Both the position numbers and the translations under genes were made by a program. From an uncultured Opitutales bacterium (lineage in GTDB: Bacteria > Verrucomicrobiota > Verrucomicrobiia > Opitutales > Intestinicryptomonadaceae), in NCBI GenBank assembly GCA_934613415.1, contig CAKTSY010000001.1, forward strand, positions 210,001 to 242,000: a DNA stretch of 32,000 nt, in the 5' to 3' direction. Below the pieces are notes generated by a model that saw only the letters and a program-made list of their open reading frames with translations, did not search any database and was not told where the DNA came from. Positions 100 through 25,845 of this stretch are shown piece after piece (position 1 is the first letter of the stretch; each line of letters opens with the position of its first letter).

Positions 100-735
100 A
101 TGTCCTACTATAATCGGCAAATGTTTTTTAAATATGCAAAGGTAATACTCGTAATATTGGCGGCTGTGGCTGTTCAATATTTTTGGGGCTTTGCGCAAAT
201 TGTAGAGGCTTTCGAAGAATTTGCAAAAAACAATTCCGCCACATACGTTTTTTTGCCCGTTATGGGCATAGGGTGCGCCGTGGGCGTACCGCTTTCGTTT
301 TGCTATGTGTTTGCCGCAAGCGCATATACGTTGCCAAAAGCTTTTTTGCTTTGCATTATAGGGCTTTTTACAAGCTCGCTTATAGGTTTTTTTATAGGCA
401 ACGTGTTTTCGGAACTGCCCTATGTAAAAAAACTTAAAAACGAATTTTTGCCAAAGCATGCCGAAGACGCCATATATTTTAAACTTAATTTCTTTATAAG
501 GGCAATTCCCGGGGTTCCCTATTTTGCGCAAAACCTAATATTGGCTTCGCTTTCAAAAAAAGTGCAACTTTTTACATATTTGCTTATAAATATTTGCGTG
601 CAAGGGCTTATTGCGCTTGCAATGATTTTGATTTTCAACGCGGCTTTTAGGGAAAAGTTTTTAATTGCCATAACCCTTGTTATTGCGCTAATTGCAACCT
701 ATGTAGTTTTGAAAAAAAGATGCCCAAGAATGTAA
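100..735 (+). CDS. TVP38/TMEM64-type (DedA superfamily, SNARE-associated/VTT domain) integral membrane protein
   Basis: 211 aa with an ATG start and multiple hydrophobic helices. The motif 'FFIRAIPGVPYFAQNLILASLSKKVQLFTYLL' matches the R-x-IP-x-x-P...N...G/A pattern of DedA/TVP38 proteins, and 'GFFIGNVF' sits upstream of it. The 3' end overlaps the next gene by 16 nt. Confidence 0.6.
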   Translation: MSYYNRQMFFKYAKVILVILAAVAVQYFWGFAQIVEAFEEFAKNNSATYVFLPVMGIGCAVGVPLSFCYVFAASAYTLPKAFLLCIIGLFTSSLIGFFIGNVFSELPYVKKLKNEFLPKHAEDAIYFKLNFFIRAIPGVPYFAQNLILASLSKKVQLFTYLLINICVQGLIALAMILIFNAAFREKFLIAITLVIALIATYVVLKKRCPRM

Positions 736-1502
736 AAGAATTTTTTTGCTCGCTTTGGTTTTGCATGGGCTTTGTAGTTTTCGGCATTTTGGCAATACCC
801 GCCGTTTTGGCCTCGGTTTTGGCGTATATTATTTTGTTTTTCGACAAAGGTTTGCGCTGCAGGGCAATTTCAGCAATAATACAAGCTGCAATGAGGCTGT
901 ATGTATTTTTTGCGCTGCCTAAAATGGGCGGGTATACCGTAAAAATTTGCGGCAAAGAAAACCTTAACAAAGCCGATATTTATGTGGCAAACCACACCTC
1001 CTTTATAGACCCCTTTATAATGCTGGCTCTAATAGGCGATGCGGGAATTTTGGTAAAGACAAAATACAAAAGAAACCCCTTCATTTTGATTTTCTTTTAC
1101 ATATTCAATTTCGTGTCGATTTCTAAAGACGACATTTTGTCGGTTCAAAACTCCTATAGAAAATGCGCCGAAGTTTTAAACGAAAACCACCGCCTTATAA
1201 TATTCCCCGAAGGCCAACGCAGCCGCAGCTGCCAGCTTGCAGACTTTAAAAAATCGGCATTTAAGCTTGCAAAAGAGCTAAATAAAACCGTAGCAACCTG
1301 CACAATTCGCTTTAGTGACAAATTTATGGCAAAGGGGCAAAAAAGTTTCCGCCCAAAGTTTATGCAAACGCTTACAATTTGCATAGGCAAACCCATAAGC
1401 CCCCAAAACTGCCGCAACGCCGACGCAATTTCGGCAAAAGCCTACAACGAAATTTACCGCAACATAAAAAGCATAGACGCAAATTTAAAAAACACAAAAT
1501 AA
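720..1502 (+). CDS. PlsC-family 1-acyl-sn-glycerol-3-phosphate / lysophospholipid acyltransferase with N-terminal membrane anchor
   Basis: 260 aa. It has the HX4D catalytic motif 'NHTSFID' and the second acyltransferase block 'IFPEGQRSRS'. Two N-terminal hydrophobic segments are present. Confidence 0.8.
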   Translation: MPKNVKEFFCSLWFCMGFVVFGILAIPAVLASVLAYIILFFDKGLRCRAISAIIQAAMRLYVFFALPKMGGYTVKICGKENLNKADIYVANHTSFIDPFIMLALIGDAGILVKTKYKRNPFILIFFYIFNFVSISKDDILSVQNSYRKCAEVLNENHRLIIFPEGQRSRSCQLADFKKSAFKLAKELNKTVATCTIRFSDKFMAKGQKSFRPKFMQTLTICIGKPISPQNCRNADAISAKAYNEIYRNIKSIDANLKNTK

Positions 1503-1507
1503 CCACA

Positions 1508-1933
1508 ATGGACAAAGAAGAAATTAAAAAGCTGCTTTTGCACAGAGAACCCTTTTTGATGGTCGACAAAGTTATTTCGCACACCGACACGCAAATAGAA
1601 TGCGAATTGTTTTTAGACGAAAATTTGCCGTTTTTTAAGGGACATTTTCCGGGGCAGCCCATTATGCCTGGAGTGCTTACCTGCGAAGCCCTTGCCCAAA
1701 CGGGCGGAATTTTGCTTGCGCTAAAAAATGCCTCTCAAAACAAAATGTTTTACTTGGCATCGGCAAATATGAAATATTTAAAGGTTGCCCGCCCGCCCGA
1801 AACGTTAAAACTTTGCGTAAAAATTGTGCGCAGCTTTAACGGGCTTTATCAGTTTTCGGCTACAGCCTATGTTGACACCGACAAAATTGCAGAGGGTACC
1901 ATTGTTTTGGCGGCAGCAAAAAACGCGCAATGA
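1508..1933 (+). CDS. fabZ: 3-hydroxyacyl-ACP dehydratase, FabZ family (hotdog fold)
   Basis: The motifs 'LLHREPFLMVDKV' and 'FFKGHFPGQPIMPGVLTCEALAQ' are canonical FabZ motifs and include the catalytic His and Glu. The start was moved from 1379 to the ATG at 1508, because the upstream part of the ORF is Arg/Lys-rich and overlaps the PlsC-like gene. The stop overlaps the next start (ATGA). Confidence 0.8.
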   Translation: MDKEEIKKLLLHREPFLMVDKVISHTDTQIECELFLDENLPFFKGHFPGQPIMPGVLTCEALAQTGGILLALKNASQNKMFYLASANMKYLKVARPPETLKLCVKIVRSFNGLYQFSATAYVDTDKIAEGTIVLAAAKNAQ

Positions 1934-2634
1934 AGTTTTTAATATTAAGAGGCAACCCGCGCAAAACCGGCCTTAGCGAAAAGCTTGGCAACCTGTTTAA
2001 AGAGGGCTTAAAAGACGCAAACGCCGAAATTTTCGACATAGATTTGGCAGCGCAAAACATTGCACCGTGCAAAGGCTGTTTTGCGTGCGTAAAAACGGGC
2101 AAATGCGTGCAAAACGACAATATGCAAAACATTTTGTGCCTTTTAAAAGAATGCGACGCCATTGTGTGCATAAGCCCCGTATATTTTTATTCTACAAGCT
2201 CGCTTGTAAAAATATTTTTCGACAGATGCTTCCCCTTAATAGACGGATACACCTACAATGCTAAAAACAATGCGGTAGAAAATTCTACCGCGTTAAAGGG
2301 CAAAAAATTTATCACCATAAGCTGCGCTCTTGGGCGCAAAAACTCGGCGTTTGGCGTTATAGGCCAAACATATTCAAGCATTGCAAGCGCGCTAAACCTA
2401 AACTACATCGCAAACATTTGCCGAGGCGAAGCCCCCTTGCTAGGCGAAAATTCGCAAACATCTTTAAGGGTAAGAAAAATATTTGCGGCCTTCCGCGAAA
2501 TGGGCAAAGAGCTTGGCGAAAAAGACGAAATAAGCCAAAGTTCAATAGATGTAGCCGAACTTTATCTAAGCTTGTCGGACGAACAGTTTGCCAAAAATGC
2601 AAAAATTTTTTGGGATATAGAAAAACGAAGATAG
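1930..2634 (+). CDS. iron-sulfur flavoprotein (Isf-like) / NADPH-dependent FMN reductase family protein
   Basis: 234 aa. The flavodoxin-like N-terminus 'MKFLILRGNPRKTG' is followed by the compact cysteine motif C-x2-C-x2-C-x5-C ('CKGCFACVKTGKC', nt 2068-2106). That motif is characteristic of Isf-type 4Fe-4S flavoproteins. 'ISPVYFYS' matches the FMN reductase family. Confidence 0.6.
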   Translation: MKFLILRGNPRKTGLSEKLGNLFKEGLKDANAEIFDIDLAAQNIAPCKGCFACVKTGKCVQNDNMQNILCLLKECDAIVCISPVYFYSTSSLVKIFFDRCFPLIDGYTYNAKNNAVENSTALKGKKFITISCALGRKNSAFGVIGQTYSSIASALNLNYIANICRGEAPLLGENSQTSLRVRKIFAAFREMGKELGEKDEISQSSIDVAELYLSLSDEQFAKNAKIFWDIEKRR

Positions 2635-2705
2635 CGCGTTTTTTTTAATTGTCTTTTAAACAAAAAATGCGGCTTGTAAAAAATATGCCGACTTTTGCCC
2701 AATTT

Positions 2706-3440
2706 TTACGCGTGCGAAATTAGCCCGCCGTCTACAACAAGGCACTGACCCGTAATATACGAGGCGTCGTCGCACGCCAAAAACAAAACCGCCTTTGCAA
2801 TTTCGGCTGGGTCTGCAAAACGCTTTAATGTAATTTTTTCGCACTGGGCTGCGGCTATGGCACGGGGTATTTTTGCGGTCATATCGGTCTTAACAAAACC
2901 GGGAGCTACCGCGTTTACGCGAATGCCCTTCATGCCGCCTTCGGCAGCCGCCACGCGCATAAACGAAAGCATTGCGCCCTTGCTTGCCGCATAGTTTGCC
3001 TGCCCTACAACGCCAGTTAAGCCCGACACCGACGAAACAAACACAACGCTGCCCGATTTTTTTGCATACATTTTGCGCATAACCGCCTTTGTCCACAAAA
3101 ACGCGCCAGTAAGGTTTGTGTCGATAACGCTTTTAAAATCGCATTCGCTCATAAGCATTATGTAGCCGTCTTTTGTAATGCCTGCGTTGTTTACAAGAAT
3201 ATCTATCTTGCCGCGTTCGGCGCAAATTTCGTCTACAATGCGCGAGATTTCTTCGGGGTTATCCTGCCCGCATTGATACGCTTTGCCGCCTATTTTTTTT
3301 GCCAAATCTTCGGCAAGCTGTGCGGAAGACTTATATGTAAAGCAAACAAACGCGCCCTCTTCGGCAAAAAGCTCTGCTGTGGCAGCCCCTATACCGCGCG
3401 AACCGCCCGTAATCAAAACCGTTTTACCTGCAAGTTTCAC
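2706..3440 (-). CDS. fabG: 3-oxoacyl-ACP reductase (SDR family)
   Basis: 244 aa with 'TGGSRGIG' (the TGxxxGxG cofactor-binding site), 'NNAGIT' and the catalytic Ser plus 'YAASKGA' (YxxxK). The GTG start overlaps the upstream stop by 1 nt (TAGTG). Confidence 0.85.
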   Translation of the reverse strand: MKLAGKTVLITGGSRGIGAATAELFAEEGAFVCFTYKSSAQLAEDLAKKIGGKAYQCGQDNPEEISRIVDEICAERGKIDILVNNAGITKDGYIMLMSECDFKSVIDTNLTGAFLWTKAVMRKMYAKKSGSVVFVSSVSGLTGVVGQANYAASKGAMLSFMRVAAAEGGMKGIRVNAVAPGFVKTDMTAKIPRAIAAAQCEKITLKRFADPAEIAKAVLFLACDDASYITGQCLVVDGGLISHA

Positions 3441-4507
3441 TATTGCTCCATTCCGTTTTCAAGGCTTTTTGTCATTACGCACGGGCGCGAAATTGTAGAA
3501 ATATCGCCCAAATTTTCGCTTGCCTTCGAGGAAAATTCGAAGCCCGCCAAAGCGTATTTGCGCTTAAAAATAGCCATTCCCAAATTGTCGTTTAGCGCAT
3601 AGCTAAATTTGCTGCAAACAACGCGCCCTACGCTTTCGCCGTCGGCAAAAATTTCGGCGTTGTCGGCAATATTGCCCTTTACGCAAACTACTGGCATTAA
3701 AGATTCGTCTTTGCGGTATCCGAATATTTTTTCAGAGCCCGAAAACGATTCCTTGTCGAAATCTACCGCCCACAATAGCCCAAGCTGCGCCATATTGCCT
3801 ACTTTTGCACCTTCGTTTCTGGCGCAGTAAAAGTTCGATTCCATTGCAGCCAAGTCCAACGCCTTAAATCCGCCAAGAGTGCCTTTTAAACTTTCCACCG
3901 CGCATTTAAGCTGTTTAAAAAGTTTGCCTGCAACCGCCTTGGGCGCAAAAAACATATAGCCAAATTCGCCCGTTTTGCCGCAGCGCAACAAAACAACCTT
4001 TTCGCCCTCGTAGTCGTACGTTTCGCACGACATAAACGAAAGGTTTAAAATGTCGGAACCAAAAACCTCTTTTGCCGCCTTATACGCCAAAGGCCCGTCT
4101 ACCGAAAAAAGGCAGTGGGTTTCGCCCGCGTCTTTTGCGCCGTTTTTTAAAGCCGAAATATCGGCATTTTCCAAAGCGTCGGCAATAAGCAAAACAAAGT
4201 CGCCTGTGTCGGCAACAAAAGTTTCGGCTGCAATATTTCCGTTATTGTCGGCAAAAAACGAATCTACAACTTTGCCGTATCTAAGCTTTAATATGTTCGA
4301 AGTCAACACGGCGTCGAGATTGTCTATTGCGTCGCTTTCGGTATAAATAAAAGGTTTTAAATACGACAAGTCGCTTAAAAGCACGCTGTTGCGCAATGCC
4401 GCATATTCGTCTTTAAGCGACTTATACACCGCAACAGCTTCGCTGCCCACCACGCAGGCAAACTCTTCGGCATTCGCCCAATTTTCTTTTAAAAGCATAG
4501 TTTTCAT
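3440..4507 (-). CDS. GcvT-family (aminomethyltransferase / folate-binding T-protein fold) protein, function unknown
   Basis: 355 aa. Colinear resemblance to glycine-cleavage T protein is visible in several blocks. 'RNSVLLSDLSYLKPFIY' resembles 'aglfDvShmgki.v', 'LRCGKTGEFGYMFF' resembles 'iSRTGYTGEdGFEi', and 'LGLLWAVDFDKESFSGSEKI' resembles 'aGLgwaVkldkgdFiGreal'. The gene is translationally coupled on both sides. Confidence 0.6.
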   Translation of the reverse strand: MKTMLLKENWANAEEFACVVGSEAVAVYKSLKDEYAALRNSVLLSDLSYLKPFIYTESDAIDNLDAVLTSNILKLRYGKVVDSFFADNNGNIAAETFVADTGDFVLLIADALENADISALKNGAKDAGETHCLFSVDGPLAYKAAKEVFGSDILNLSFMSCETYDYEGEKVVLLRCGKTGEFGYMFFAPKAVAGKLFKQLKCAVESLKGTLGGFKALDLAAMESNFYCARNEGAKVGNMAQLGLLWAVDFDKESFSGSEKIFGYRKDESLMPVVCVKGNIADNAEIFADGESVGRVVCSKFSYALNDNLGMAIFKRKYALAGFEFSSKASENLGDISTISRPCVMTKSLENGMEQ

Positions 4508-4776
4508 TTAGTTGCCAAAATATAGTCTACCAAAGTGTTTATCGAACGCAGCTCGCCAAGCCCCGATTCGGGCATTTTCACTCCAAAATTGCTTTCTACG
4601 CAGCTTACAACTTCAAGAATGTCCAGCGAGTCTAACCCAAGGCCAAGGCCCACAATGGGAATATCGTCGGACAAATCGCTCGGCAAATAGGGCAAATCCA
4701 AAGCCTCTATAAGTTTGCGTTTCAGCTCCGAACAAACGTTGCGTCTTTTCTCAAGATTTTCGTTGTTGACTATCAT
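4504..4776 (-). CDS. acyl carrier protein (cluster-specific ACP 1)
   Basis: 90 aa. The phosphopantetheine attachment motif 'GLGLDSLDILEVV' (DSL serine) is present. The ATG start and the ATGA overlap with the downstream GcvT-like gene are clear. Confidence 0.8.
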   Translation of the reverse strand: MIVNNENLEKRRNVCSELKRKLIEALDLPYLPSDLSDDIPIVGLGLGLDSLDILEVVSCVESNFGVKMPESGLGELRSINTLVDYILATK

Positions 4777-4849
4777 ATTTTAGATACCTTTTATAAAAAA
4801 ATTACTATTGCTTTTATATAAACACTATTCAAGCGCAAAAAGTCTGCCT

Positions 4850-5563
4850 ATGAAAATCTGTGCGGTAATTGCCTGCTACAACCACAACAAAAGCCTAAAC
4901 TACGTTGCCGAAACCGTTTCGCGCAACTTTTTTACCATTGTTGTAGACGACGGCTCGCAAACCCCCGTAAGCTTTAAAAACCCCAACTCGCTTGTTATAA
5001 GGAATAAAAAAAACCTGGGCAAGGCGCAGTCGCTAAAAATTGCGTTTAAAAAGGCTTGCGCGCTTGGGTTTACACACGCAATAACTTTAGATGCCGACTT
5101 GCAACACCCGCCCGAATTTGCGCAAAATTTTGCAAAGGCTGCCGCCGAAAATAAAAATTGCATCATTGTGGGAGTAAGAGACTTTGAACACCCTACAATG
5201 CCAATTCCACCAAAACGGCTTTTTATGAACAAATTTTCCAACTTTTGGTTTTACAAAGAAACAAAAGTAAAGCTTGGCGACACGCAATGCGGCTATAGAT
5301 GCTACCCGTTAAACGAGATAGAAAAACTAAAGCTGAACTTTTCGGGCTTTGTTTTTGAAACCGAAATTTTGGTAAAAGCCTGCTGGGGAAACATAGCCTT
5401 AAAAGAGCTTAAAATACCCGCCGTATATACCGAAGAAAGCATAAAAAATTCGCACTACAAGCCCTTTTTAGACACGCTTAAATTTTCGATTATGAATACA
5501 AGGCTATATTTCGAGAGTCTCTTGCTGCCAAAATGCATATTAAAAAAGCTGGCTTTAAAATAG
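4850..5563 (+). CDS. family 2 glycosyltransferase
   Basis: It has 'ICAVIACYNH', 'VVDDGS', the DxD-type block 'TLDADLQHPP' and 'QCGYRCYP'. The start was set at ATG 4850; the listed ORF begins at a TTG at 4808. Confidence 0.8.
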   Translation: MKICAVIACYNHNKSLNYVAETVSRNFFTIVVDDGSQTPVSFKNPNSLVIRNKKNLGKAQSLKIAFKKACALGFTHAITLDADLQHPPEFAQNFAKAAAENKNCIIVGVRDFEHPTMPIPPKRLFMNKFSNFWFYKETKVKLGDTQCGYRCYPLNEIEKLKLNFSGFVFETEILVKACWGNIALKELKIPAVYTEESIKNSHYKPFLDTLKFSIMNTRLYFESLLLPKCILKKLALK

Positions 5564-5567
5564 TTTT

Positions 5568-7886
5568 ATGCGCATAAAAAACCTAGTTATTTTCCTGATT
5601 GCGGCAGTGGCACTGTGCGTATTTGCCGCATTGCGCCTTACAAACGCCGCTTTCGACGAAAATCCGTTCGACATACTTGCCGTTGTAAACGACTCTATCT
5701 TATCGCAAAAAAAGGCAGCCGAAAATCTGGATTTTTCGAGAAAGGTATATTTTAACGTTTCGGGCAAAAACGCGCTTATGGCCGCCGAAAATTTGGCAAA
5801 AGAGCTTGAAAAATCGGGCGCAAAAGTAAACCGCCCGAAAATTTCGCCCGAAAATTTCGAAAATACAATAGACAACATAACATATTCTTTTGCCTACATA
5901 TTTAACGCAAACCGCGAAAACTTTTTAAACGGGCTAAAAAAAGAGGAAACAAAAAAACGTTTGGCAGAATTTAAAAAGAAAATGCTTTCGCCCGAAGGCG
6001 CTGTTGCAAAAAAAATCTTGGCAAAAGACCCCTTCGGAATGTGCAATGTTGTTTTCGGCTATTTGGCGGAATTTAAAGACCCAAACTGCGAAATAAAAAA
6101 CGGCTTTCTTTGCAAAGACAACAATATATTGCTTGTTGCCACGGTAGACTTTGCGCCGTCTAACACGAAAAAGGCGGCCGAATTTTACGAATTTGCAAAA
6201 AATACGACGCAAAAAATAGACGAAGAATTGGGAACTAAAACGGCATTTAGCGGCGGCTGCATTACCAGTGCCGAAAACGCAAAAATTTCTAAAAGCGAGT
6301 CGTCTAAATCGCTATATATAACGGCGTTTTTGTTGGCGTGCATTTGCGCGGTTGCGTTTAAAAGAAAGCTTAACCTTATATTTGCAATAGCCCCCGCTTT
6401 GGCGGGCATGGGGGCTGCACTTTGCATTTTAACTTTTGTGTATGCAAAAATTTCGGTAATTGCGTTGGCGTTTGCCGCAATAGCCGTAGGGGTTGGCATA
6501 GACTACGCAATACACATAATCTATGCCATAGAATCGGGGCGCGAACCGAACAAAATAGTAGCAGATTTTGCAAAGCCCATTTGCATTGCGGCGGGAACAA
6601 GCATTGCGGCGTTTGTCATAATATTTTCCTTTTCTAACACGGGCTTTGCGCAGCTTGGTTTTTTTGGGGCTTTTGGCATTTTGCTTACCGCAATTTTTAC
6701 GCTTTGCCTGCCATTTTTATACAAAAAATCTAGACTGCAAAAGGTAACAATTTTCGAAAAATTGGGGCAAAAAATTTACAACATTCAAAGCCGTTTTGGC
6801 AAAGCGTTGTTTTTTGGAGCTGCCCTTTCGATTTTGCCTGCTGTGTTTTTTGCTTTTAAAATAAATTTCGAAAGCGACATAAATTCTTTAAACGGAATTT
6901 CCGCCCAAAGAAAGACCGACTCGCAGCTTATTACCAAGCTTTGGGCAAACGCCCTTTTCAACGACACCTACGCCGTTGTGTATGCCGACACGCCAGAAGC
7001 TTTAAGGCAAAACAACGAACTTTTAGCAAAATTTTTAAAAACGCAAAATTTAAATTTTAAAAGCGCAAGCATACTATGCCCTTCAAACAAAAGCGCGCAA
7101 AACAGCCTAGAAAATTGGCAAAAGTTTTGGGTATCGCCCCAGGGCAAACAGGCGGTGGCAAACTTTTTAGAATCGGCAAAAGAGCTTGGCTTTAAGCCCG
7201 AATTTTTTAAAGACGCAATATTAAACGCACAAAACAAACACGACATAAAATGCCTGCAAAAAACGCCCTTTAGCGACTTTGCCGAAAATTTCATTTCGCA
7301 AAAGGCGGCCCTTACAATAATAAAGAATGTAGACGGCGAAAAGTTCGAAATTTTGGAACGCCAAATGAAAGAATTTATGCCGGAGGCAAGCCTATATAAC
7401 GCAAAGGAATTCGGCAAAAATATGGCAAGTCTTTCTAAAATTTGGACGGCAAAATTTGCGTTCTTTGCCGTATTGTTTGCCGCAGCCTACCTGCTTGTTA
7501 TGTTCAAAAGCATAAAAAAGCCCCTTGTTGTGATGCTAAGCGTATTTTTGGGCATTTTGTGGGCGGCAGCCATTATGGGCATATTTAAAATTTCAATAAA
7601 CCCCATAAACGCAATATTTGTAATCTTTGCAATATGTTTGGCACAAGACTATGCCGTGTTTACAATTTGCGCAAAAGACAACAACCCAGCAAAAACTCAG
7701 GCGTGCGTTGCGCTTTCGGCACTTACAACAATAATCGCCTTCGGCTCTTTGGCGTTAACACAAAGCCCGGTGCTAAAAAGTTTGGGTTTGGCTGGCGCTA
7801 TATCCATATTATGTGTTTGGCTGGCGTCTTCTTGCATAACATATCCGCTCTGTAGAATTTTTATTAAAGACAATGCAAAACGTTAA
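5568..7886 (+). CDS. MMPL / RND-superfamily predicted lipid exporter
   Basis: 772 aa with a duplicated architecture: a TM helix, a soluble domain of about 220 aa and a TM bundle, repeated twice. The first bundle contains 'AVGVGIDYAIHIIY', which is typical of MMPL/RND transporters. Confidence 0.75.
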   Translation: MRIKNLVIFLIAAVALCVFAALRLTNAAFDENPFDILAVVNDSILSQKKAAENLDFSRKVYFNVSGKNALMAAENLAKELEKSGAKVNRPKISPENFENTIDNITYSFAYIFNANRENFLNGLKKEETKKRLAEFKKKMLSPEGAVAKKILAKDPFGMCNVVFGYLAEFKDPNCEIKNGFLCKDNNILLVATVDFAPSNTKKAAEFYEFAKNTTQKIDEELGTKTAFSGGCITSAENAKISKSESSKSLYITAFLLACICAVAFKRKLNLIFAIAPALAGMGAALCILTFVYAKISVIALAFAAIAVGVGIDYAIHIIYAIESGREPNKIVADFAKPICIAAGTSIAAFVIIFSFSNTGFAQLGFFGAFGILLTAIFTLCLPFLYKKSRLQKVTIFEKLGQKIYNIQSRFGKALFFGAALSILPAVFFAFKINFESDINSLNGISAQRKTDSQLITKLWANALFNDTYAVVYADTPEALRQNNELLAKFLKTQNLNFKSASILCPSNKSAQNSLENWQKFWVSPQGKQAVANFLESAKELGFKPEFFKDAILNAQNKHDIKCLQKTPFSDFAENFISQKAALTIIKNVDGEKFEILERQMKEFMPEASLYNAKEFGKNMASLSKIWTAKFAFFAVLFAAAYLLVMFKSIKKPLVVMLSVFLGILWAAAIMGIFKISINPINAIFVIFAICLAQDYAVFTICAKDNNPAKTQACVALSALTTIIAFGSLALTQSPVLKSLGLAGAISILCVWLASSCITYPLCRIFIKDNAKR

Positions 7887-8742
7887 ATGGAAAGGCAAGT
7901 CGTACGGAGGCTATTTCGGCAACTGGTGCTTTGCAATGCTGCTAAAAGCGGGGCTTTTGCCCGCATATTTGCTACTTATGTTTGTAGCGTTTTACTTCGC
8001 CTATTTTAGGCCGTCGGTAAACGCAATTTCGCGCAACTACCTAAAAATGGTTTTCGGCAAAAAACCAATGTACTTTTCGCCAAAAGTATATTTGCACTTT
8101 TTAAATTTCGGCATTTGCCTTTTAGACAAGGCCGCCTACCACCTTAAAAGCAAAAAAATAAAAATCGTAAATCTTTGCGGCAAAGAAATTTCTGGTTTTA
8201 TAAAAGAAGGCGGTTCTTGCATAGTTTTAACGGCGCATTTTGGCGGCTGGGCAATTTCGGCAAACACTTTAAAACAATATAACCGCCCCGTAAAAATTTT
8301 GGGAACCCAAACCGAAGACGGCAAAATTGCATCTTTGTGGGAAAAATCTAGTAAGATAGACGCCCTAAAAAGCGTGGGCGGCTACGAAGACGAATTTGCG
8401 TCGCTTGCAGCGTATAAAGAGCTTAAAAACGGAACTATTATTGCAATACATTCCGACAGGTACGCCGGCGGCAAGTACATAGAAACCCCGTTTTTGGGCA
8501 AAAAAATAAAGTTTTCTATTGCGCCTTTTGCGTTGGCAATGGCAGCCCGCAAGGGCATTATACAAACCCTTTGCGTAAGAAAAGGCCTTTGCCAATACCA
8601 AATGGTAGAGCTATGCCATGCGCAATCTTTAAAAACACACGCCGACATAAACGAATTTGCCCAAAAGTGTGTAAGCGAACTTGAAAGCTATGTAAAAAAA
8701 TACCCCTACCAATGGTTTAATTTTTACGACTATTGGGAATAA
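7873..8742 (+). CDS. LpxL/HtrB-type (lipid A biosynthesis lauroyl/myristoyl) acyltransferase family protein
   Basis: 289 aa. An N-terminal membrane anchor is followed by 'LTAHFGGWAIS', which resembles the catalytic H-x-G-N-W-E block of the family, and by 'IAIHSDRY'. It overlaps the MMPL gene by 14 nt. Confidence 0.65.
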   Translation: MQNVKWKGKSYGGYFGNWCFAMLLKAGLLPAYLLLMFVAFYFAYFRPSVNAISRNYLKMVFGKKPMYFSPKVYLHFLNFGICLLDKAAYHLKSKKIKIVNLCGKEISGFIKEGGSCIVLTAHFGGWAISANTLKQYNRPVKILGTQTEDGKIASLWEKSSKIDALKSVGGYEDEFASLAAYKELKNGTIIAIHSDRYAGGKYIETPFLGKKIKFSIAPFALAMAARKGIIQTLCVRKGLCQYQMVELCHAQSLKTHADINEFAQKCVSELESYVKKYPYQWFNFYDYWE

Positions 8743-8788
8743 ATGCTTGCCTATAACCGCGTTGTAGACAAGTATTGTGCCGTATTAT

Positions 8789-9049
8789 ATGGACAGACAA
8801 GACTTGATTGCAGACATAAAAAAGAACTTGGCTTCTTCGCTAAACATTCAGCCCGAAGACTTGGATTTTGCCGACGAAAACACCCCTCTTTTCGAGGAGG
8901 ACGGCCTTGGACTAGACTCGGTAGACGCGCTAGAGCTAATCGTTATGCTCGAAAACAAATATAAAATTTCGGTAGACGACAAAGACGAAGCCAAAAAGAT
9001 TTTCGCCACAATGGGCGCATTGGCAGATTATATTTTGGCAAAACAATGA
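8789..9049 (+). CDS. acyl carrier protein (cluster-specific ACP 2)
   Basis: It has the 'GLGLDSVDALELIVMLE' DSx serine motif. The start was taken at ATG 8789, with an alternative GTG at 8777. The stop overlaps the KS start (ATGA). Confidence 0.8.
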   Translation: MDRQDLIADIKKNLASSLNIQPEDLDFADENTPLFEEDGLGLDSVDALELIVMLENKYKISVDDKDEAKKIFATMGALADYILAKQ

Positions 9050-11196
9050 AAAGCCAAAGCATTGCCGTAGTTTCGCACGGGCTTTGGTGCGCAAACGCCC
9101 GCAACCCCAACGAAGCCTACAACTTGGCACTTTCGCAACAGCGTGCGCTAAGGCAGCAAAATTTGTTCGAAAGCGAAAGGTTTGCCGACAGGTTTTCGGG
9201 GCAAGCCGAAATACCCGAGCTTAAAAATGCTTCTAAAATTTCAAACTGCGGCAAAATGCTTTTGGCGGCTTTAAACCAAAGCCTTTTAAATTTTAACGCC
9301 GAAATTCTTAAAAAATATAAATGCGGCGTTTTTTTAGGAACAAGCATTGGCGGCATTTTTGAAACCGAAAACGCCATTGTAGACAACCTAAAAAACGACA
9401 CAAAAAACCTTTCGGCACTGCGCTATTACGAATGCAGCACTTTGGCGGAATTTGTGGCAAAAAGAACGGGGGCTTCGGGCGAATGCTGCGCGTTTTCCAC
9501 AGCGTGCTCAAGCTCGTCTATTGCGCTAGATGCCGCAGCCTGCGCCATTGCCTGCGGCGATTTAGATTTTGCAATAGTTTGCGGCGCCGACAGCCTTTCG
9601 AGAATAACTTTAAACGGGTTTGGCTCGCTTTTGCTTTTGTCGAAACAATTTAGCAAGCCCTTCGACGCAAACCGCGACGGCATAAATTTGGGCGAAGCCG
9701 GAGCCGTTTTAATTTTGGCAAGCCAAAAGGCTGTTAGCGAAAATTCGCTTAATGTTTTGGCAAATGTTTCGGGCTGGGGGTCTTCGTGCGATGCGCACCA
9801 CGCAACCGCGCCAGACCCAGAAGGCAACGGAGCTTTTTTGGCAATAGAAAATGCGCTTAAACTTTCGGGCAATGCCCAAGTTTCGTTTATATGCGCGCAC
9901 GGCACGGGAACTGCCGGCAACGACGTTGCCGAAATAAAAGCCCTAAATAAAGCGTTTGCAAACATGCCTAAATACGCGTCTTTAAAGGGCATTTTCGGAC
10001 ACACACTAGGGGCAAGCGGTCTGCTTAACGCCGCAGTGGCAATAGAGGCAATGCAAAATTGCAAGGCCTTTGCAAGCACCGGCTTTTCAGACAAAGACCC
10101 CGAAATTACCCCGCAGCCTGCAACCGAAAATTTTCAGACAAATCTGGGAAATGTTTTGTCGCTTTCGCTGGGTTTTGGCGGCAACAATTCGTGCACAATA
10201 TTTTCTAAAACGAATTCCGCAAAAATAGATTTTTACGAAAACCCTTGCTACATCTACTCTGTCGGAGCTTTTTCGGATTTGGGCGAAAACTCGGCGCAAA
10301 TTTTTGAAAACTACGGCGATTTAAACAAACGCCAAACATTTACTCCGCTAAAAAGCATATCGCCTTTAAAAAAGCGCAGGTGGTCTAGACACCAGCAAAT
10401 TTTGCTAAGCGCAATGCAAGAATGCGCAAACGCACTAGGTACCCAAATCGACGCAAAAAGAACGGGCGTATGCTTGGGAACTGGACTTGGCATGACGGGC
10501 GAAACCGAAAACTTTTTAATGCCTATTTTAACCGAGGGCGAAAATTCGGCAAAGCCGCTTTCCTTTACAAATTCGGTGCACAACGCCGCCTCTTCGCTTG
10601 CCGCGCTAAGCTACAAATTAAACGGCATAAATTTTGCGGTTTCGGCAAAGGAAATTTCGTTTGAATGCGCGCTAAAAACCGCCCTAAACAAAATAAAGAC
10701 AAATGCAATAGATGCCGCCTTTGTAGGCTCTAGCGACGAGTACAACCACTTTGCGCAAGAGTTTATGAATGCGCACGCCATATATTCGCACGCAAAGCCC
10801 AACCTAAGCGAACAGGCTGCAACCTACTATTTGTCGAAAGAGCTAAAAGGCGTTATGCCCCTTGCAAAAATAAGCTTATTAGACATTTCAAAACGCGCGC
10901 AAAGCCCGCTAGCCGAGGCCGAACGCGTAGGGCAAATTTTGGCAAATGCAAATTGCAAAGATTTTGTAAAATGCTTTTCGCTTTTGCCGCGCAATAAATT
11001 TGCCGAAAAAATCATTGGGGCAATTTCCGCAAAAGTCGGCAAATTCGAATTTTTAGACGAAGTGCTTTCAAGCTCGTATTCGGTTTCGGCATTCGGGATT
11101 TTGGCTGCTTTAAAAAACGGCTCTAAGGGACGTTATATGCAATATGTGCTATCTAGCACAAACAAGGCGGCAATTTTTGTTTTCGAAATTCTATGA
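9046..11196 (+). CDS. fused beta-ketoacyl synthase (active KS) plus C-terminal chain-length-factor-like KS-N domain
   Basis: 716 aa. The N-terminal half carries the Cys-His-His triad: 'STACSSS' (Cys154, nt 9505-9507), 'CAHGTGTAGND', 'GHTLGASG' and the terminal 'LGFGGNNS'. The C-terminal ~318 aa (from ~nt 10240) aligns to a KS N-terminal half, but has 'SAKEISFECAL' where T-A-C-x-S is expected. It also lacks the His motifs. Confidence 0.8.
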   Translation: MKSQSIAVVSHGLWCANARNPNEAYNLALSQQRALRQQNLFESERFADRFSGQAEIPELKNASKISNCGKMLLAALNQSLLNFNAEILKKYKCGVFLGTSIGGIFETENAIVDNLKNDTKNLSALRYYECSTLAEFVAKRTGASGECCAFSTACSSSSIALDAAACAIACGDLDFAIVCGADSLSRITLNGFGSLLLLSKQFSKPFDANRDGINLGEAGAVLILASQKAVSENSLNVLANVSGWGSSCDAHHATAPDPEGNGAFLAIENALKLSGNAQVSFICAHGTGTAGNDVAEIKALNKAFANMPKYASLKGIFGHTLGASGLLNAAVAIEAMQNCKAFASTGFSDKDPEITPQPATENFQTNLGNVLSLSLGFGGNNSCTIFSKTNSAKIDFYENPCYIYSVGAFSDLGENSAQIFENYGDLNKRQTFTPLKSISPLKKRRWSRHQQILLSAMQECANALGTQIDAKRTGVCLGTGLGMTGETENFLMPILTEGENSAKPLSFTNSVHNAASSLAALSYKLNGINFAVSAKEISFECALKTALNKIKTNAIDAAFVGSSDEYNHFAQEFMNAHAIYSHAKPNLSEQAATYYLSKELKGVMPLAKISLLDISKRAQSPLAEAERVGQILANANCKDFVKCFSLLPRNKFAEKIIGAISAKVGKFEFLDEVLSSSYSVSAFGILAALKNGSKGRYMQYVLSSTNKAAIFVFEIL

Positions 11197-11753
11197 AAAA
11201 ATTTTTTTGCATAATTTTAACTGTTGGCATTGCAGTGCACGGCTTTTGCAAACCCAAAGCCGTGCTTATAGAACAGACAAAAACCTATGCAATGCTTGGC
11301 GAAAAGCTGGCGTCTAAAGCCGTTGCCGTAAGCGACGGCGAAAACGTACGCTGGCAGGTGATTAGCCCATATAAAAGCATTCTTATAATAAATAAAAACG
11401 GCGTATTCCAATTCGAAGAAAGCAACAATACCCTAAGACAGATAAAAAACGCCGCCCCCGAAAAGACAAAGCAAATCACAAAAATGATTTTGAATATGAT
11501 TTCGGGCGACTTTTCGGAATTTGAATGCAAAACCGAAAGCGGCAAAATTTGGCTTACCCCCAAAGACGAGCTTGTAAAAAAATTTGCGGCAAAGATAGAA
11601 ATTACACTAAAAGATAAAACACCCATTAAGGCCGTTGTTTACGAGCAAGACTCGGACACAACCGAAATGCTTTTTTCGGAAAAAGAGCTGGGTAAAAACG
11701 CCGCAAATTCGGCTTTCGACGAAACAAAACCAGAGCTATTTAAACTGAACTAA
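11193..11753 (+). CDS. LolA-like outer-membrane lipoprotein-carrier family protein (secreted)
   Basis: 186 aa with the N-terminal signal sequence 'MKKFFCIILTVGIAVHGFC'. The size, the beta-rich composition and the position after the KS genes and beside the MMPL gene match the LolA-like genes of aryl-polyene-type loci. The family call rests on context and general resemblance only. Confidence 0.45.
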   Translation: MKKFFCIILTVGIAVHGFCKPKAVLIEQTKTYAMLGEKLASKAVAVSDGENVRWQVISPYKSILIINKNGVFQFEESNNTLRQIKNAAPEKTKQITKMILNMISGDFSEFECKTESGKIWLTPKDELVKKFAAKIEITLKDKTPIKAVVYEQDSDTTEMLFSEKELGKNAANSAFDETKPELFKLN

Positions 11754-11756
11754 AAG

Positions 11757-12251
11757 ATGAAAATATTCTGGGCTTTGCTTTTCTTTTTTGAGTCTTTTGC
11801 GTGCGTTTGGGCAACGCCGTATATGCACAATTTCGGGCTTTGCGGCAAAAGCTATATGCAAAGGGGCGTGTTTAAATTCGGCGAAACCGAGCTTGTTTTA
11901 AACGTTTTTGTAAAGTCGCAAAATGGCTGCACGCAAATGTCTATAAAATGCGAAGGGGCAAATTTTGCTTCTGTAAAAGTTTCAAACTCTGGCGAAATTT
12001 TAGAAGTTAAAGGTTCGCAATTTTTGCCCGAATACCTCGCAAAAAAATACGCCGCAAAAGACTTTCTTGTTTGCTTGGGCTATGCCGCGGCATTCCCGCA
12101 AAGGTGCACAATTAGCGAAAAAAATGGCAAAACCACGCTTAAAGCCCCAAACAATATTTACGAATTCGAAAGCCAAAACGGGCAAATAAAAAGCGTATAT
12201 ATAGAAAACCCGAACTACAAAATAACACTTAAAACAGTAAAGATATTTTAG
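11757..12251 (+). CDS. small secreted or lipoprotein-like protein, unknown function
   Basis: 164 aa with the hydrophobic N-terminus 'MKIFWALLFFFESFAC', which may be a signal peptide with a Cys. It lies 3 nt after the LolA-like gene and 2 nt before the next KS gene. It occupies the position of the small DUF-type lipoprotein of APE loci, but no family assignment is possible by eye. Confidence 0.55.
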   Translation: MKIFWALLFFFESFACVWATPYMHNFGLCGKSYMQRGVFKFGETELVLNVFVKSQNGCTQMSIKCEGANFASVKVSNSGEILEVKGSQFLPEYLAKKYAAKDFLVCLGYAAAFPQRCTISEKNGKTTLKAPNNIYEFESQNGQIKSVYIENPNYKITLKTVKIF

Positions 12252-12253
12252 AT

Positions 12254-22962: not shown

Positions 22963-23104
22963 ATAATACCGAAGTCGAAAAAAACTAATCTAAAACCATA
23001 TGCCCTGTAAAGCACATAGTTAAGCAAAAGCAAACGTTTTTTAACTATTGACAAAACACGCCAAATGTAAAGTATTGTGCCTTTTCACAGATAGAGGAAG
23101 TCTA

Positions 23105-24876: not shown

Positions 24877-25845
24877 ATGCAAAGAGCGCAACACCAGCAA
24901 TCGGAGGCTGCAATACCCCACAATTTTGCAAAGTTCGACGCCAACTTTAAGGCGGGCGAAACCTATGTGCATTCTTTGCCCGACATGCAAAACGAAAAGA
25001 CCGAAACCGAAGGCCTTAAACCCATTCCCATAATTCAAGTAGGCATAAACAACTTTAAGTTGCCGCTAAACATTATGGGAGCAGATTGCGAAATGCGACA
25101 GGTTCAAGCCTCGGTTACGGGCACGGTTTCGCTTGCCGCCCAAAGCAAAGGCATAAATATGTCGCGCATAATGCGCACATTCTACCGCTATTCTGAAAGG
25201 GTTTTCACCCCCGATTTACTCGAAGAAATTTTGGCGCAATACAAAAAGGATTTGGAGACATCTAGGGCGAGAATAAAAATAAGGTTTTCGTACCCGATTA
25301 TGCAAATAAGTTTGCGCAGCGGACTAAAAGGCTGGCAGTACTACGACTGCTCGTACGAAGGCATTATAGACGACCTAAACCGCTTCAGAAAAATAGTTTC
25401 GTTCGACTTTATATATTCTTCGGCGTGCCCCTGCTCTTCGGAGCTTAGCGAACACGCGCGCAACACGCGCAACATATATTGCATTCCGCATTCGCAGCGC
25501 AGCAAGGCAAGAATTACTTTAGAGCTTGAAAAAAACTCGCATATGCCTATCGAAGACATTCACGCAAAATGCCTTAACGCCCTTAAAACCGAAACCCAAG
25601 TTATGGTTAAGCGCGAAGACGAACAGGCTTTTGCCGAAATGAACGGCGCTTACGTAAAGTTTGTGGAAGACGCAGCCCGCCTTTTACATAAAGAGTTCGA
25701 CTGCGACACGCGCGTAAAAGATTTTGAAATAACCTGCGTACACCTCGAAAGCCTGCACTCGCACGACGCGGTAAGCGTTGTATGCAAAGGCCGCCCCGGC
25801 GGCTTTACAGGCAGTTTTTCAGACTTTTCCAGTTTGGTTTGCTAA
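24877..25845 (+). CDS. folE2: GTP cyclohydrolase IB (FolE2 / GCYH-IB, T-fold) family protein
   Basis: 322 aa. The motifs 'LPDMQNE', 'KGINMSRIMR', 'SACPCSSELSEH', 'PHSQRS' and 'ESLHSHDAV' parallel the FolE2 blocks (LPDvq, G.HMSRF, CPCSK..S, HNQRS, ES.H.H.A). Confidence 0.7.
   Translation: MQRAQHQQSEAAIPHNFAKFDANFKAGETYVHSLPDMQNEKTETEGLKPIPIIQVGINNFKLPLNIMGADCEMRQVQASVTGTVSLAAQSKGINMSRIMRTFYRYSERVFTPDLLEEILAQYKKDLETSRARIKIRFSYPIMQISLRSGLKGWQYYDCSYEGIIDDLNRFRKIVSFDFIYSSACPCSSELSEHARNTRNIYCIPHSQRSKARITLELEKNSHMPIEDIHAKCLNALKTETQVMVKREDEQAFAEMNGAYVKFVEDAARLLHKEFDCDTRVKDFEITCVHLESLHSHDAVSVVCKGRPGGFTGSFSDFSSLVC

Follow-up and report, generated by a model that had tools for sequence, protein, structure and literature searches.

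The GcvT-fold protein encoded in the window (the whole 32,000-nucleotide stretch of DNA analysed here) belongs to a very widespread subfamily of GcvT-like proteins linked to an ACP; we coin the name GcvTL for the subfamily and for its member in the window. Type II FAS and PKS systems are thought to comprise a small, well-known set of parts, and a GcvT-fold protein behaves as a core FAS/PKS-like part across Verrucomicrobiota, Myxococcota, Planctomycetota, Bacillota, and Enterobacterales. We consider it a little better than an even call that GcvTL is a folate-independent, ACP-dedicated subunit. If it is catalytic, it would bring either a new reaction or a new mode of carrier-protein recognition to FAS/PKS enzymology.

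An earlier, sequence-only reading of this DNA had stated that the GcvT fold is not known to have a role in FAS, PKS, or aryl-polyene (APE) pathways, and the literature searched here agrees with it. Full-text searches returned no paper assigning a function to the association of the GcvT fold with an ACP and none linking the fold to ACP or FAS/PKS/aryl-polyene genes; for O-island 47 of E. coli, to which we return below, they returned regulator papers only. Since no linking paper was found, the ACP–GcvT–FabG trio does not appear to belong to a characterised pathway.

Gene neighbourhood of GcvTL in the window

The window, from a gut Opitutales bacterium, has its cassette inside an envelope-lipid cluster of the aryl-polyene-like type (Table 1). 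KS-CLF fusions, a KR, and a DH lie near the GcvTL gene, and the acyltransferases, the glycosyltransferase, the MMPL exporter, and the LolA-like carrier are additions of the window cluster to the cassette. The FMN_red flavoprotein gene is located about 800 nt from GcvTL. The FabH-type KS III gene adjoins FabG in several Opitutales relatives.

Table 1. Genes of the window cluster (100..15694), with the matches on which their naming is based.
Feature	Coordinates	Strand	Basis and remarks
VTT/DedA-like membrane protein	100..735	+	PF09335, 29 bits, below cut-off; syntenic in Opitutales loci
PlsC-type acyltransferase	720..1502	+	PF01553, E=4e-20; syntenic in Opitutales loci
FabA/ApeI-like dehydratase (DH)	1505..1933	+	PF07977, E=4.9e-20; weak ApeI-like match
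FMN_red / flavodoxin-like protein, Cys-rich motif CKGCFACVKTGKC	1930..2634	+	PF03358, E=2.9e-18
FabG-type 3-oxoacyl-ACP reductase (KR), 244 aa, GTG start	2706..3440	-	adh_short_C2, E=7.5e-65; TIGR01830, 271 bits, below the 298-bit cut-off
GcvT-fold protein GcvTL, ACP-linked subfamily member, 355 aa	3440..4507	-	Pfam, AlphaFold, HMM scores
ACP1, 90 aa, DSL motif (Ser50)	4504..4776	-	PP-binding, E=4e-08
Family-2 glycosyltransferase, divergent from ACP1	4808..5563	+	PF00535, E=7.6e-13
MMPL/RND-type exporter	5568..7886	+	PF03176, E=3e-17
LpxL-like (lipid A type) acyltransferase	7873..8742	+	PF03279, E=8e-15
ACP2	8777..9049	+	PP-binding, E=4e-08
KS-CLF fusion 1, 716 aa	9046..11196	+	Ketoacyl-synt domains in both halves; C-terminal half with Glu, not Cys or Gln, at active-site position
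LolA-like lipid or lipoprotein carrier	11193..11753	+	PF03548, E=1.9e-07; LolA2_flexi, 46 bits, below cut-off
164-aa protein	11757..12251	+	No Pfam/NCBIfam match; position conserved in Opitutales loci
KS-CLF fusion 2, 784 aa	12254..14608	+	C-terminal half with Phe at active-site position
FabH-type KS III	14603..15694	-	ACP_syn_III_C, E=7.6e-29

That the GcvTL gene is locked between an ACP and FabG, as had been claimed, can be read directly from the overlaps. At the ACP1/GcvTL junction, TCAT at 4504-4507 of the + strand is ATGA on the (-) strand, where the TGA stop codon of the ACP overlaps the ATG of GcvTL. Similarly, CACTA at 3438-3442 of the + strand is TAGTG on the (-) strand, where the TAG of GcvTL overlaps the GTG start of the SDR gene (FabG). 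Neither junction carries a promoter- or terminator-like site, and the total number of such sites in a scan of 2500..5000 was not above chance.

The likeness to APE and flexirubin clusters, at the level of profile matches, lies in the KS and CLF, the two ACPs, the KR, the FabA/ApeI-like DH, the GT2, MMPL, and LolA-like genes, and the LpxL-like and PlsC-like acyltransferases, with a 4HBT thioesterase present in sister loci. The APE gene list used here is reportedly that of Cimermancic 2014 and Johnston 2021. Compared with APE clusters, the window has GcvTL, FabH, and the FMN_red protein, and its KS and CLF are fused. The ORFs scanned at 100..15694 contained no aryl-starter gene (neither an ApeH-type AMP ligase nor an ammonia or chorismate lyase) and no methyltransferase, and none of the curated flexirubin models reached its cut-off for the window proteins.

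GcvTL has the complete fold of a T-protein

The GcvT fold proposed from the sequence held up in both the profile and the structural comparisons. GcvTL matched Pfam GCV_T over residues 15-244 with E=1.2e-25 and 90.7 bits (cut-off 25.6), and it scored 24.4 bits against GCV_T_C, slightly below the cut-off of 25.9. Its AlphaFold2 model (pLDDT 87, pTM 0.87) superposed on the T-proteins 1WOO/1WOS with a TM of 0.80 (E=7e-27) over ~335 columns of its 355 residues, which indicates a complete three-domain fold, the C-terminal barrel included. The co-linearity with T-protein was likewise borne out: the block CGKTGEFGYMFF aligns without a gap with SRTGYTGEDGFEL of T. maritima GcvT, and the RxGxTGE block, R39, E223, W246, and K252 are conserved. 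The model also matched 3TTG, a putative aminomethyltransferase from Leptospirillum, in Foldseek; this entry was absent from the sequence/profile search, and the Foldseek, sequence, and profile searches found no solved structure of any GcvTL family member.

Could GcvTL be an ordinary glycine-cleavage T-protein that came to lie inside a lipid cluster by chance? GcvT is indeed its top match in Pfam, NCBIfam, and the PDB. However, its scores against the NCBIfam GcvT models, 63-83 bits, are far below the equivalog cut-offs (83 vs 300 for NF001567, 63.5 vs 235.85 for TIGR00528, and 63.3 vs 459 for NF010093), and key residues are replaced, as detailed below. Moreover, gcvH and gcvP are absent from the 32-kb window, and none was seen in the relatives' contexts examined; GcvTL lies in a KS-CLF/KR/DH context instead, and the ACP context recurs in 58/58 clusters. 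E. coli, furthermore, has its own gcvTHP operon, so that the copy on the O157:H7 island would be a second, additional gene. We therefore regard a stray T-protein as extremely improbable.

GcvTL scored 18-55 bits against the NCBIfam DmdA, LigM, Tdm, and SoxA models, whose cut-offs are 410-1164. On the other hand, it reached 272 bits against an HMM of its ACP-linked relatives from which its own Opitutales clade had been left out, compared with 153 bits for an HMM of canonical GcvT sequences, the two models differing in size (116 and 12 sequences, respectively).

An ACP accompanies GcvTL across phyla

The sequence-only reading had proposed a search for GcvT-like genes beside ACP genes in other genomes, and such pairs were found in a family-wide sample of 122 loci (59 clusters at 60% identity, with contexts from across the tree). 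The ACP was directly upstream of GcvTL in 55 clusters, fused to it in 2, and one gene away in 1, which accounts for every cluster whose upstream DNA could be read (58/58). An ACP was also upstream of GcvTL in all 36 Opitutales loci and in all 4 distant loci, and independent ACP-GcvTL fusions occur in P0013, P0078, P0115, P0137, P0144, and P0156. Compared with ACP2, ACP1 is more like the ACPs next to GcvTL in other phyla (52-91 vs 37-58 bits); judged by these sequence scores, ACP1 is of the type that accompanies GcvTL.

Members of the family were found in gut Opitutales, Myxococcota, Planctomycetota, Bacillus and Priestia plasmids, and E. coli. The GcvTL gene is retained across phyla, even in otherwise minimal cassettes. 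In the soil and myxobacterial cassettes, a Pfam search of the conserved uncharacterised neighbours gave nothing or only PD40 repeats. A curated model for the ACP-linked subfamily was not found, and PGAP is no more specific about its members than "aminomethyltransferase family protein" or [quoted passage not shown]. Because the neighbour-joining tree of GcvTL and its relatives is star-like, the case for a monophyletic subfamily comes from HMM scores, genomic context, and the characters that its members share.

Among the long loci, an ACP was present in 39/39, a KS in 35/39, a DH in 27/39, and a KR in 26/39, whereas FMN_red was present in 12/39 and FabH in 1/39; radical SAM genes were counted in 6/39, a figure of little weight, as the HMM drifted onto KS proteins and a score threshold was applied. 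These counts bear on the possibility that GcvTL is a YgfZ/Iba57-like Fe-S helper, either for the Cys-rich FMN_red flavoprotein, as the sequence-only reading had suggested, or for the B12-radical-SAM enzymes whose genes adjoin GcvTL in some relatives. YgfZ and Iba57 do share the GcvT fold, the gene of an Fe-S-type flavoprotein lies 800 nt from GcvTL, and Iba57 keeps Asp at the catalytic position and works without folate, as YgfZ is argued to do (PMC9551070); the pair thus provides a precedent for a GcvT fold that retains an acidic "catalytic" residue without folate dependence. However, the YgfZ-type KGCYxGQE signature, reported as missing from GcvTL in the first place, gave no regular-expression match in GcvTL or its relatives, and no invariant Cys column was present in the family alignment. 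The GcvTL model is also nearer to T-protein in structure, with TM values to YgfZ and Iba57 (0.53-0.62) much below 0.80. Finally, the linkage is to an ACP and not to Fe-S assembly genes, and the E. coli and Priestia cassettes contain neither FMN_red nor radical SAM genes. The idea that GcvTL supports the flavoprotein is thus not supported, and an Fe-S helper is very unlikely.

The folate site is replaced and the pocket looks remodelled

In human T-protein, tetrahydrofolate is bound by M56, D101, Y197, E204, and R233, and two of these residues, Glu204 (pterin clamp) and Tyr197 (stacking), are invariant in the THF-binding relatives, namely GcvT homologues, TrmE, and DMGO (PMC9551070). We assigned the pocket positions by sequence alignment to solved T-proteins and counted residues in 12 canonical sequences, 18 from Opitutales, and 120 from the rest of the family. 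GcvTL has L50, E95, K178, M185, and L217 at the five human positions, so that only D101 stays acidic, as Glu; Asp is found there in 72/120 other family members. The "folate-dependent" label given to the gene from its sequence is consequently not supported: Tyr197, Glu204, and Arg233 are replaced by Lys178, Met185, and Leu217, and two of these replacements lie within the very block that had been offered as evidence.

These replacements recur in the family. At the Tyr197 position, Tyr is present in 9/12 canonical sequences (the rest having His, Phe, or Asp), whereas Lys/Arg is present in 17/18 Opitutales sequences and 79/120 others; Tyr/Phe persists in 19/120 of the latter. Glu204 is invariant in the canonical set, compared with Gln, Met, Lys, or Thr in Opitutales and a Glu in only 8/120 others. 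The Arg233 position carries Arg in 9/12 canonical sequences, and His/Leu in 16/18 Opitutales sequences and 87/120 others. The Met56 position is occupied by Val, Leu, Ser, or Ala among the Opitutales sequences.

Could GcvTL nevertheless be a folate-dependent C1 enzyme, with a divergent mode of tetrahydrofolate binding, that moves a methylene, methyl, or aminomethyl group on or off an ACP1-tethered starter or head group? The full T-protein fold, the acidic residue at the catalytic Asp position, and the invariant RxGxTGE block would fit such a role, and the characterised enzymes of this fold (GcvT, DmdA, LigM, DMGO, and Tdm), among which are the best PDB/NCBIfam matches, use folate. DmdA, LigM, and DMGO, moreover, are examples of the GcvT fold recruited to new substrates. 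However, the aromatic residue and the Glu of the Tyr197/Glu204 block are kept by DmdA and by the human and Pyrococcus T-proteins in our alignment, and by DMGO (PMC9551070), whereas GcvTL keeps neither, having lost the pterin clamp, the stacking residue, and Arg233. Iba57 likewise keeps its Asp and is folate-free (PMC9551070). In addition, the cassettes lack genes for a methyltransferase, for P-protein or H-protein, and for folate recycling, and the FolE2 gene is 20 kb from GcvTL with unrelated genes between. Replacement of the folate residues also weakens the suggestion that an amine-bearing head group undergoes C1 tailoring, and we consider a folate-dependent enzyme unlikely.

The pocket of GcvTL looks remodelled rather than decayed, as judged from the conserved positions of the family. 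It still shares with true T-proteins the Arg and Glu of the RxGxTGE block (R175 and E181), which do not vary in the family. The canonical Asp (Asp192 in T. maritima) is replaced by a conserved F/Y182 (99%), F182 in GcvTL; W142 is conserved at 83%, with GcvTL itself having Tyr at 142; and E/D110 (72%) stands where the canonical residue is Asn. The C-terminal motif T338-x-S340-x-P342...S348 is conserved at 84-99%, and all four of its residues are present in GcvTL. GcvTL thus combines the features of the subfamily, namely Lys/Arg at Tyr197, a residue other than Glu at Glu204, an aromatic residue at Asp192, and the C-terminal tail. The pocket is more hydrophobic or aromatic, with Phe/Tyr for Asp192, Leu for Arg227, Val for Thr309, and the Trp at 142.

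Such a pocket could also belong to a non-catalytic pseudo-enzyme that docks ACP1 and either shields or gates the growing chain or sets its length in the central cavity. H-protein, which shields its aminomethyl-lipoate, is a model for this behaviour. ACP adjacency across the family, the fusions, the greasier pocket, and the loss of the catalytic folate site would all agree with it, and no obvious new catalytic dyad was found: none of the residues conserved in the family evidently form the nucleophile/base pair that acyltransferases or thioesterases typically have. On the other hand, the polar residues K/R178, E/D110, T338, S340, and S348, in the former pocket and the C-terminal tail, are strongly conserved, which suggests, at the level of sequence, specific ligand chemistry and not a greasy sleeve; the gene is also kept across phyla in otherwise minimal cassettes. 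We consider a non-catalytic partner rather unlikely.

Proposed role of GcvTL

We propose that the GcvTL subfamily would be the dedicated partner of a specialised ACP in type II FAS/PKS-like cassettes. The other parts of these cassettes are a KS fused to a CLF, a KR of the FabG type, and a FabA/ApeP-like DH; in some, an MCAT, a PPTase, or a 4HBT thioesterase is also present. A recognisable enoyl reductase is not encoded in the GcvTL cassettes. T-protein receives the lipoyl-lysine arm of H-protein and moves a small group between the carrier-protein thiol and a cosubstrate bound in its pocket. GcvTL is likewise paired with a small carrier protein bearing a thiol-ended swinging arm, the difference being that its partner is a phosphopantetheinyl ACP instead of a lipoyl H-protein. 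By analogy, the phosphopantetheine arm of the ACP might enter the ancestral arm tunnel of GcvTL, which would then act without folate on the group held by the ACP thiol. The AlphaFold model of the natural fusion P0013 (pTM 0.70) had pLDDT values of 41-66 (10-residue blocks) in its ACP domain and linker, and docking of the ACP on GcvTL is consequently not predicted by it.

What might the step be? It is possible that GcvTL loads or unloads the thiol of the ACP, the counterpart being a ligand other than folate that the remodelled central pocket binds; to this more specific step, which draws on the T-protein analogy, we give about half the confidence that we place in the ACP-dedicated, folate-independent subunit as such. 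A transfer step would fit because no priming Gln is present in the CLF halves and FabH is usually missing from the cassettes, and it would also parallel the small-group chemistry of T-protein itself. As to its direction, the N-terminal ACP of the fusions hints at release, whereas the aryl-polyene comparison hints at loading.

More tentatively, and with somewhat less than even confidence, GcvTL may represent a new enzyme class, in which the swinging-arm tunnel of T-protein is re-used for phosphopantetheine and a folate-independent transfer or processing reaction is carried out on ACP thioesters, unlike any known FAS/PKS component. It may then mark a hitherto unrecognised, phylum-spanning kind of type II synthase, without an encoded enoyl reductase, that makes exported envelope lipids in hosts that include EHEC O157:H7, carriers of Bacillus cereus-group plasmids, and human-gut Verrucomicrobia.

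The cassette in E. coli and other tractable hosts

Of 5426 complete E. coli genomes, 382 (~7%) carry a family member, O157:H7 and O145:H28 included. The O157:H7 protein (386 aa, an "aminomethyltransferase family protein") is 22% identical to the GcvTL of the window (E=5e-25) and contains RCGKHGEYAYM. From its gene content and its ycdU flank, we infer that the island carrying it is O-island 47 (OI-47, z1528-z1556). The papers on OI-47 consulted here treat GrvA, VmpA, and T3S levels (PMC8565820, PMC10877973, PMC4076661, PMC3378721) and not its biosynthetic half. GcvTL offers a concrete handle on this genomic island, and the cassette is carried by tractable hosts, namely E. coli, Priestia megaterium, and B. 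thuringiensis. A "sporeine" cluster in B. thuringiensis was considered and rejected, as the term denotes a commercial Bt product.

On the O157:H7 island, an ACP is directly upstream of the GcvTL member, and genes for an AcpS, an SDR, a FabZ-like DH, an 852-aa KS-CLF, an MCAT, and a LolA-like protein are nearby. It differs from the window in having a two-partner-secretion pair and an ABC exporter, compared with the MMPL, GT2, and LpxL genes of the Opitutales cluster.

Fold and Gene Junctions of GcvTL

GcvTL, as we call the GcvT-fold protein of this ACP-linked subfamily, is encoded in the window by a minus-strand ORF of 355 aa. It matched the Pfam profile GCV_T over residues 15–244 (E = 1.2e-25, 90.7 bits), while its GCV_T_C score of 24.4 bits was slightly below the cut-off of 25.9. 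The AlphaFold2 model, made from 13 homologues, was confident (pLDDT 87, pTM 0.87) and superposed best on the T. maritima T-protein (1WOO/1WOS; TM 0.80, E = 7e-27, ~335 columns). Close behind came the T-proteins of B. subtilis, Pyrococcus, human and E. coli, and the folate domains of DMGDH, DMGO and SoxA. The GcvT fold proposed by the sequence-only reading is therefore borne out by a significant profile match as well as by the structure model.

The raw sequence also contains both overlaps that had been described, ATGA at the ACP1/GcvTL junction (4504–4507) and TAGTG at the GcvTL/FabG junction (3438–3442). Upstream, ACP1 is a 90-aa PP-binding protein with a DSL motif whose Ser is residue 50; downstream lies a 244-aa FabG-type SDR. 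The KGCYxGQE motif is absent from GcvTL, as had been noted, and YgfZ and Iba57 superposed on the model with a TM of 0.53–0.62, far under the T-protein. That GcvTL might be a YgfZ-like Fe-S helper is accordingly a very improbable explanation. The earlier observation on this gene was confirmed in every particular.

Features of the window, with the lipid/polyketide cluster at 100..15694
Feature	Coordinates	Strand
VTT/DedA-like membrane protein	100..735	+
PlsC-type acyltransferase	720..1502	+
FabA/ApeI-like dehydratase (DH)	1505..1933	+
Cys-rich FMN_red flavoprotein	1930..2634	+
FabG-type reductase (KR)	2706..3440	-
GcvT-like protein (GcvTL)	3440..4507	-
ACP1	4504..4776	-
GT2	4808..5563	+
MMPL exporter	5568..7886	+
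LpxL-like acyltransferase	7873..8742	+
ACP2	8777..9049	+
KS-CLF fusion, 716 aa	9046..11196	+
LolA-like protein	11193..11753	+
164-aa protein without Pfam or NCBIfam match	11757..12251	+
Second KS-CLF fusion, 784 aa	12254..14608	+
FabH	14603..15694	-
606-aa ORF	23048..24868	
FolE2, FabA-like, KS and Kdo transferase genes	24877..28878	

ACP Linkage across the Family

An exhaustive profile search (E ≤ 1e-30) gave 203 representatives of 50%-identity clusters. In a neighbour-joining tree, the true GcvTs formed one small clade; the Opitutales clade fell among ~138 other full-length representatives, which radiated in a star-like pattern. An HMM of the ACP-linked relatives from which the Opitutales clade and its sister group had been left out scored the window GcvTL at 272 bits, compared with 153 bits for a canonical GcvT HMM built from only 12 sequences. 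Furthermore, GcvTL missed the NCBIfam equivalogs GcvT, DmdA, SoxA, Tdm and LigM/DesA by wide margins, and we give next to no credence to its being an ordinary GcvT.

In all contexts sampled from distant branches, an ACP lay just upstream of GcvTL, and the same contexts contained a fusion of ketosynthase and chain length factor (KS-CLF) of ~700–850 aa, a KR and a FabA/ApeP-like DH; some also carried MCAT, PPTase, 4HBT thioesterase, FMN_red or B12-radical-SAM genes. With 80 further metagenome loci, the count of contexts came to 122 loci, which fell into 59 clusters at 60% identity. An ACP was linked in 58 of the 58 clusters with readable upstream DNA (55 directly upstream, 2 fused and 1 one gene away), and ACP–GcvTL fusions were found in six independent representatives. 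Within 7 kb in the 39 loci of at least 8 kb, the neighbours were KS (35/39), DH (27/39), KR (26/39) and, less often, MCAT (13/39), FMN_red (12/39) and FabH (1/39); the ad hoc HMM annotation of the high-GC metagenome loci is approximate, and its radical-SAM HMM drifted. ACP1, but not ACP2, is of the type that accompanies GcvTL in other phyla. The pairing of GcvTL with a distinct ACP type is obligatory in genomes, and the finding first made in the window is real and more general than could be seen from one stretch of DNA.

Several cassettes carry additional genes. Those of Myxococcota and deltaproteobacteria share a conserved, Pfam-negative protein of ~537 aa downstream of DH (locus L039, 12459–14072; L038, 9738–11345; L040, 6502–7281), which in the Polyangiales locus L039 adjoins an amine-oxidase/phytoene-desaturase-like flavoprotein. 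B12-binding radical SAM enzymes are added in L045 (a GCA_041736795.1 contig) and L044, and one cassette also encodes a 1036-aa protein in which a PLP-dependent Beta_elim_lyase domain is fused to an AMP-binding domain. The radical SAM enzymes and this fusion hint at heavily tailored products in the lineages concerned.

The Folate Site

In human GcvT, Met56, Asp101, Tyr197 and Glu204 are invariant in THF-binding relatives (GcvT homologues, TrmE and DMGO), while Arg233 is GcvT-specific (PMC9551070). We mapped these residues in an alignment of 150 representatives and two solved T-proteins; aligning the RxGxTGExG block pairwise, which needed no gaps, placed them identically. In that block, Tyr and Glu both persist in the T-proteins of T. 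maritima, B. subtilis, Pyrococcus and human, and DmdA has Trp and Glu.

Residues at the canonical folate positions
Human GcvT	Window	Family
Met56	L50	Opitutales: V/L/S/A
Asp101	E95	Glu in 15/18 Opitutales; Asp in 72/120 of wider family
Tyr197	K178	Lys/Arg in 17/18 Opitutales and 79/120 others
Glu204	M185	Gln in most Opitutales; Glu in only 8/120 others
Arg233	L217	Leu or His in most

With Tyr197, Glu204 and Arg233 replaced, the label "folate-dependent" in the sequence-only reading should be dropped. These replacements and the missed equivalogs leave a T-protein fold in which canonical folate binding is improbable. Position 182 is F/Y in 99% of the family (canonical Asp), position 142 is W in 83%, position 110 is E/D in 72% (canonical Asn) and position 297 is V/L/A (canonical Thr); the C-terminal motif T338-x-S340-x-P342...S348 is 84–99% conserved. 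Because several former pocket positions bear new, family-conserved residues, the substitutions do not look like random decay, and the cofactor pocket appears to have been rewritten under selection. Iba57 is a precedent of the same fold that retains the acidic residue and works without folate (PMC9551070). A divergent C1 chemistry that still used folate, acting on a substrate carried by the ACP, would keep the ancestral cofactor in this altered site, and we regard it as improbable.

A Possible Role on the ACP

Could a T-protein fold act on an ACP without folate? The T-protein works with a small carrier protein whose swinging arm, ending in a thiol, enters a tunnel toward a pocket-bound cosubstrate; a small group is then passed between arm and cosubstrate. 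In PDB 3A8I, the arm in this tunnel is lipoyl-lysine. By analogy, GcvTL would accept the phosphopantetheine arm of its ACP and perform a folate-independent transfer on the ACP thiol, with a new ligand of the remodelled pocket as the partner. We slightly favour GcvTL being a folate-independent, ACP-dedicated subunit; about half of that confidence extends to the transfer step specifically, which we infer tentatively. A loading or priming role may be suggested because GcvTL, with FabH here, occupies the place of the ACP loader in aryl-polyene clusters. On the other hand, the fusions run ACP then GcvTL, which suggests unloading. In an AlphaFold model of a natural ACP–GcvTL fusion, the ACP was not docked. 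A non-catalytic chaperone or gate for the ACP would share the obligatory pairing, and, alongside the conserved new pocket residues, we consider it unlikely, though less so than the folate-dependent alternative.

The ketosynthases of the cassettes are KS-CLF fusions of 685–853 aa (both window fusions and loci L128, L129, L134, L039 and L043–L046). In their C-terminal halves, Cys and Gln are both missing from the active-site position, where the residues are E, F, E, N, G, A, D, D, A and V. Gln at this CLF position primes aromatic type II PKSs. FabH is usually absent from the cassettes and present in the window, and the KS-CLF/KR/DH cassettes have no recognisable enoyl reductase.

Cassettes in E. 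coli O157:H7 and Other Annotated Carriers

The cassette occurs on several annotated replicons and in 382 of 5426 complete E. coli genomes, O157:H7 and O145:H28 among them. In O157:H7 EC4115 (locus L134; NC_011353.1, 1279777–1320937), the island, checked with Pfam, encodes in this order an EAL-domain protein, a winged-helix regulator, an SDR and a fimbrial operon; TpsA and TpsB; AcpS, an SDR, a FabZ-like DH, ACP, GcvTL (386 aa), an 852-aa KS-CLF and a 407-aa KS-like protein with Ser at the active-site position; and ABC transporter components, a LolA-like protein and MCAT, followed by ycdU. Its GcvTL, annotated as an "aminomethyltransferase family protein", is 22% identical to that of the window (E = 5e-25), with RCGKHGEYAYM as the diagnostic block. 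E. coli has a canonical gcvTHP operon, and the island gene would therefore be additional. The conserved coupling of T-protein fold and ACP in FAS/PKS-like machinery stands and reaches E. coli O157:H7.

From gene content and flank, we infer that the island is O-island 47, published as z1528–z1556 with 27 ORFs, including grvA (z1531) and vmpA (PMC8565820, PMC10877973, PMC4076661). Among the open-access papers found on O-island 47, the only subjects are GrvA, VmpA and the change in type III secretion when the island is deleted (PMC3378721). The two-partner-secretion pair (1270-aa TpsA and TpsB) immediately precedes the biosynthetic cassette, and the ABC and LolA-like export genes follow it. Linkage to such a pair recurs on an Enterobacter plasmid and in metagenome locus L046; the observation covers loci L130–L133 as well as the EC4115 locus.

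The B. thuringiensis/B. cereus plasmid cassette comprises TE, MCAT, FabG, ACP, FabZ, a 1038-aa GNAT protein, DUF6365, an "aminomethyltransferase family protein", an 818-aa KS and dTDP-rhamnose genes. In pBTKNU07-02 (L128, 87663–106658), two insertions separate FabZ from GcvTL: the 1038-aa protein, whose sole match is an N-terminal GNAT, and the DUF6365 protein. The complete dTDP-rhamnose operon after KS suggests a rhamnosylated product. Priestia megaterium plasmids, including the QM B1551 record NC_014025.1, also carry the cassette, which in Mes11 pBMG6 runs SDR, TE, PPTase, MCAT, FabG, ACP, FabZ, GcvTL, an 809-aa KS and an MFS transporter. Other carriers are an Enterobacter bugandensis plasmid and the Proteus mirabilis chromosome. 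Among the carriers, E. coli, P. megaterium and B. thuringiensis are tractable hosts.

The Window Cluster and Its Surroundings

The genes at 100..15694 form a single cluster whose inventory resembles aryl-polyene/flexirubin clusters but lacks the aryl-starter enzymes of the former; none of the curated flexirubin models reached its cut-off on the cluster proteins. The entire cluster is syntenic in close relatives among the Opitutales (Verrucomicrobiota) associated with the gut, namely Coraliomargarita sp. CAG:312, Candidatus Merdousia and Puniceicoccaceae Marseille-Q1082, where a 4HBT thioesterase is often inserted between GcvTL and FabG. The 164-aa ORF likewise keeps its place in these relatives, between the LolA-like gene and the second KS.

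The Cys motif of the FMN_red/flavodoxin-like protein, CKGCFACVKTGKC, is compact and of the kind typical of iron-sulfur flavoproteins, and DH followed by FMN_red is a conserved pair in many relatives. The flavoprotein is a candidate for the enoyl-reductase-like step that the cassette lacks.

Farther along, the 606-aa ORF has no Pfam match, and a FolE2-type GTP cyclohydrolase I lies directly upstream of a FabA-like dehydratase, a FabB/F-like KS and a Kdo transferase. GTP cyclohydrolase I catalyses the first step of pterin and folate synthesis. The FolE2 gene is 20 kb from GcvTL with unrelated genes between, and we treat it as housekeeping, though it is an odd neighbour for fabA/fabB.
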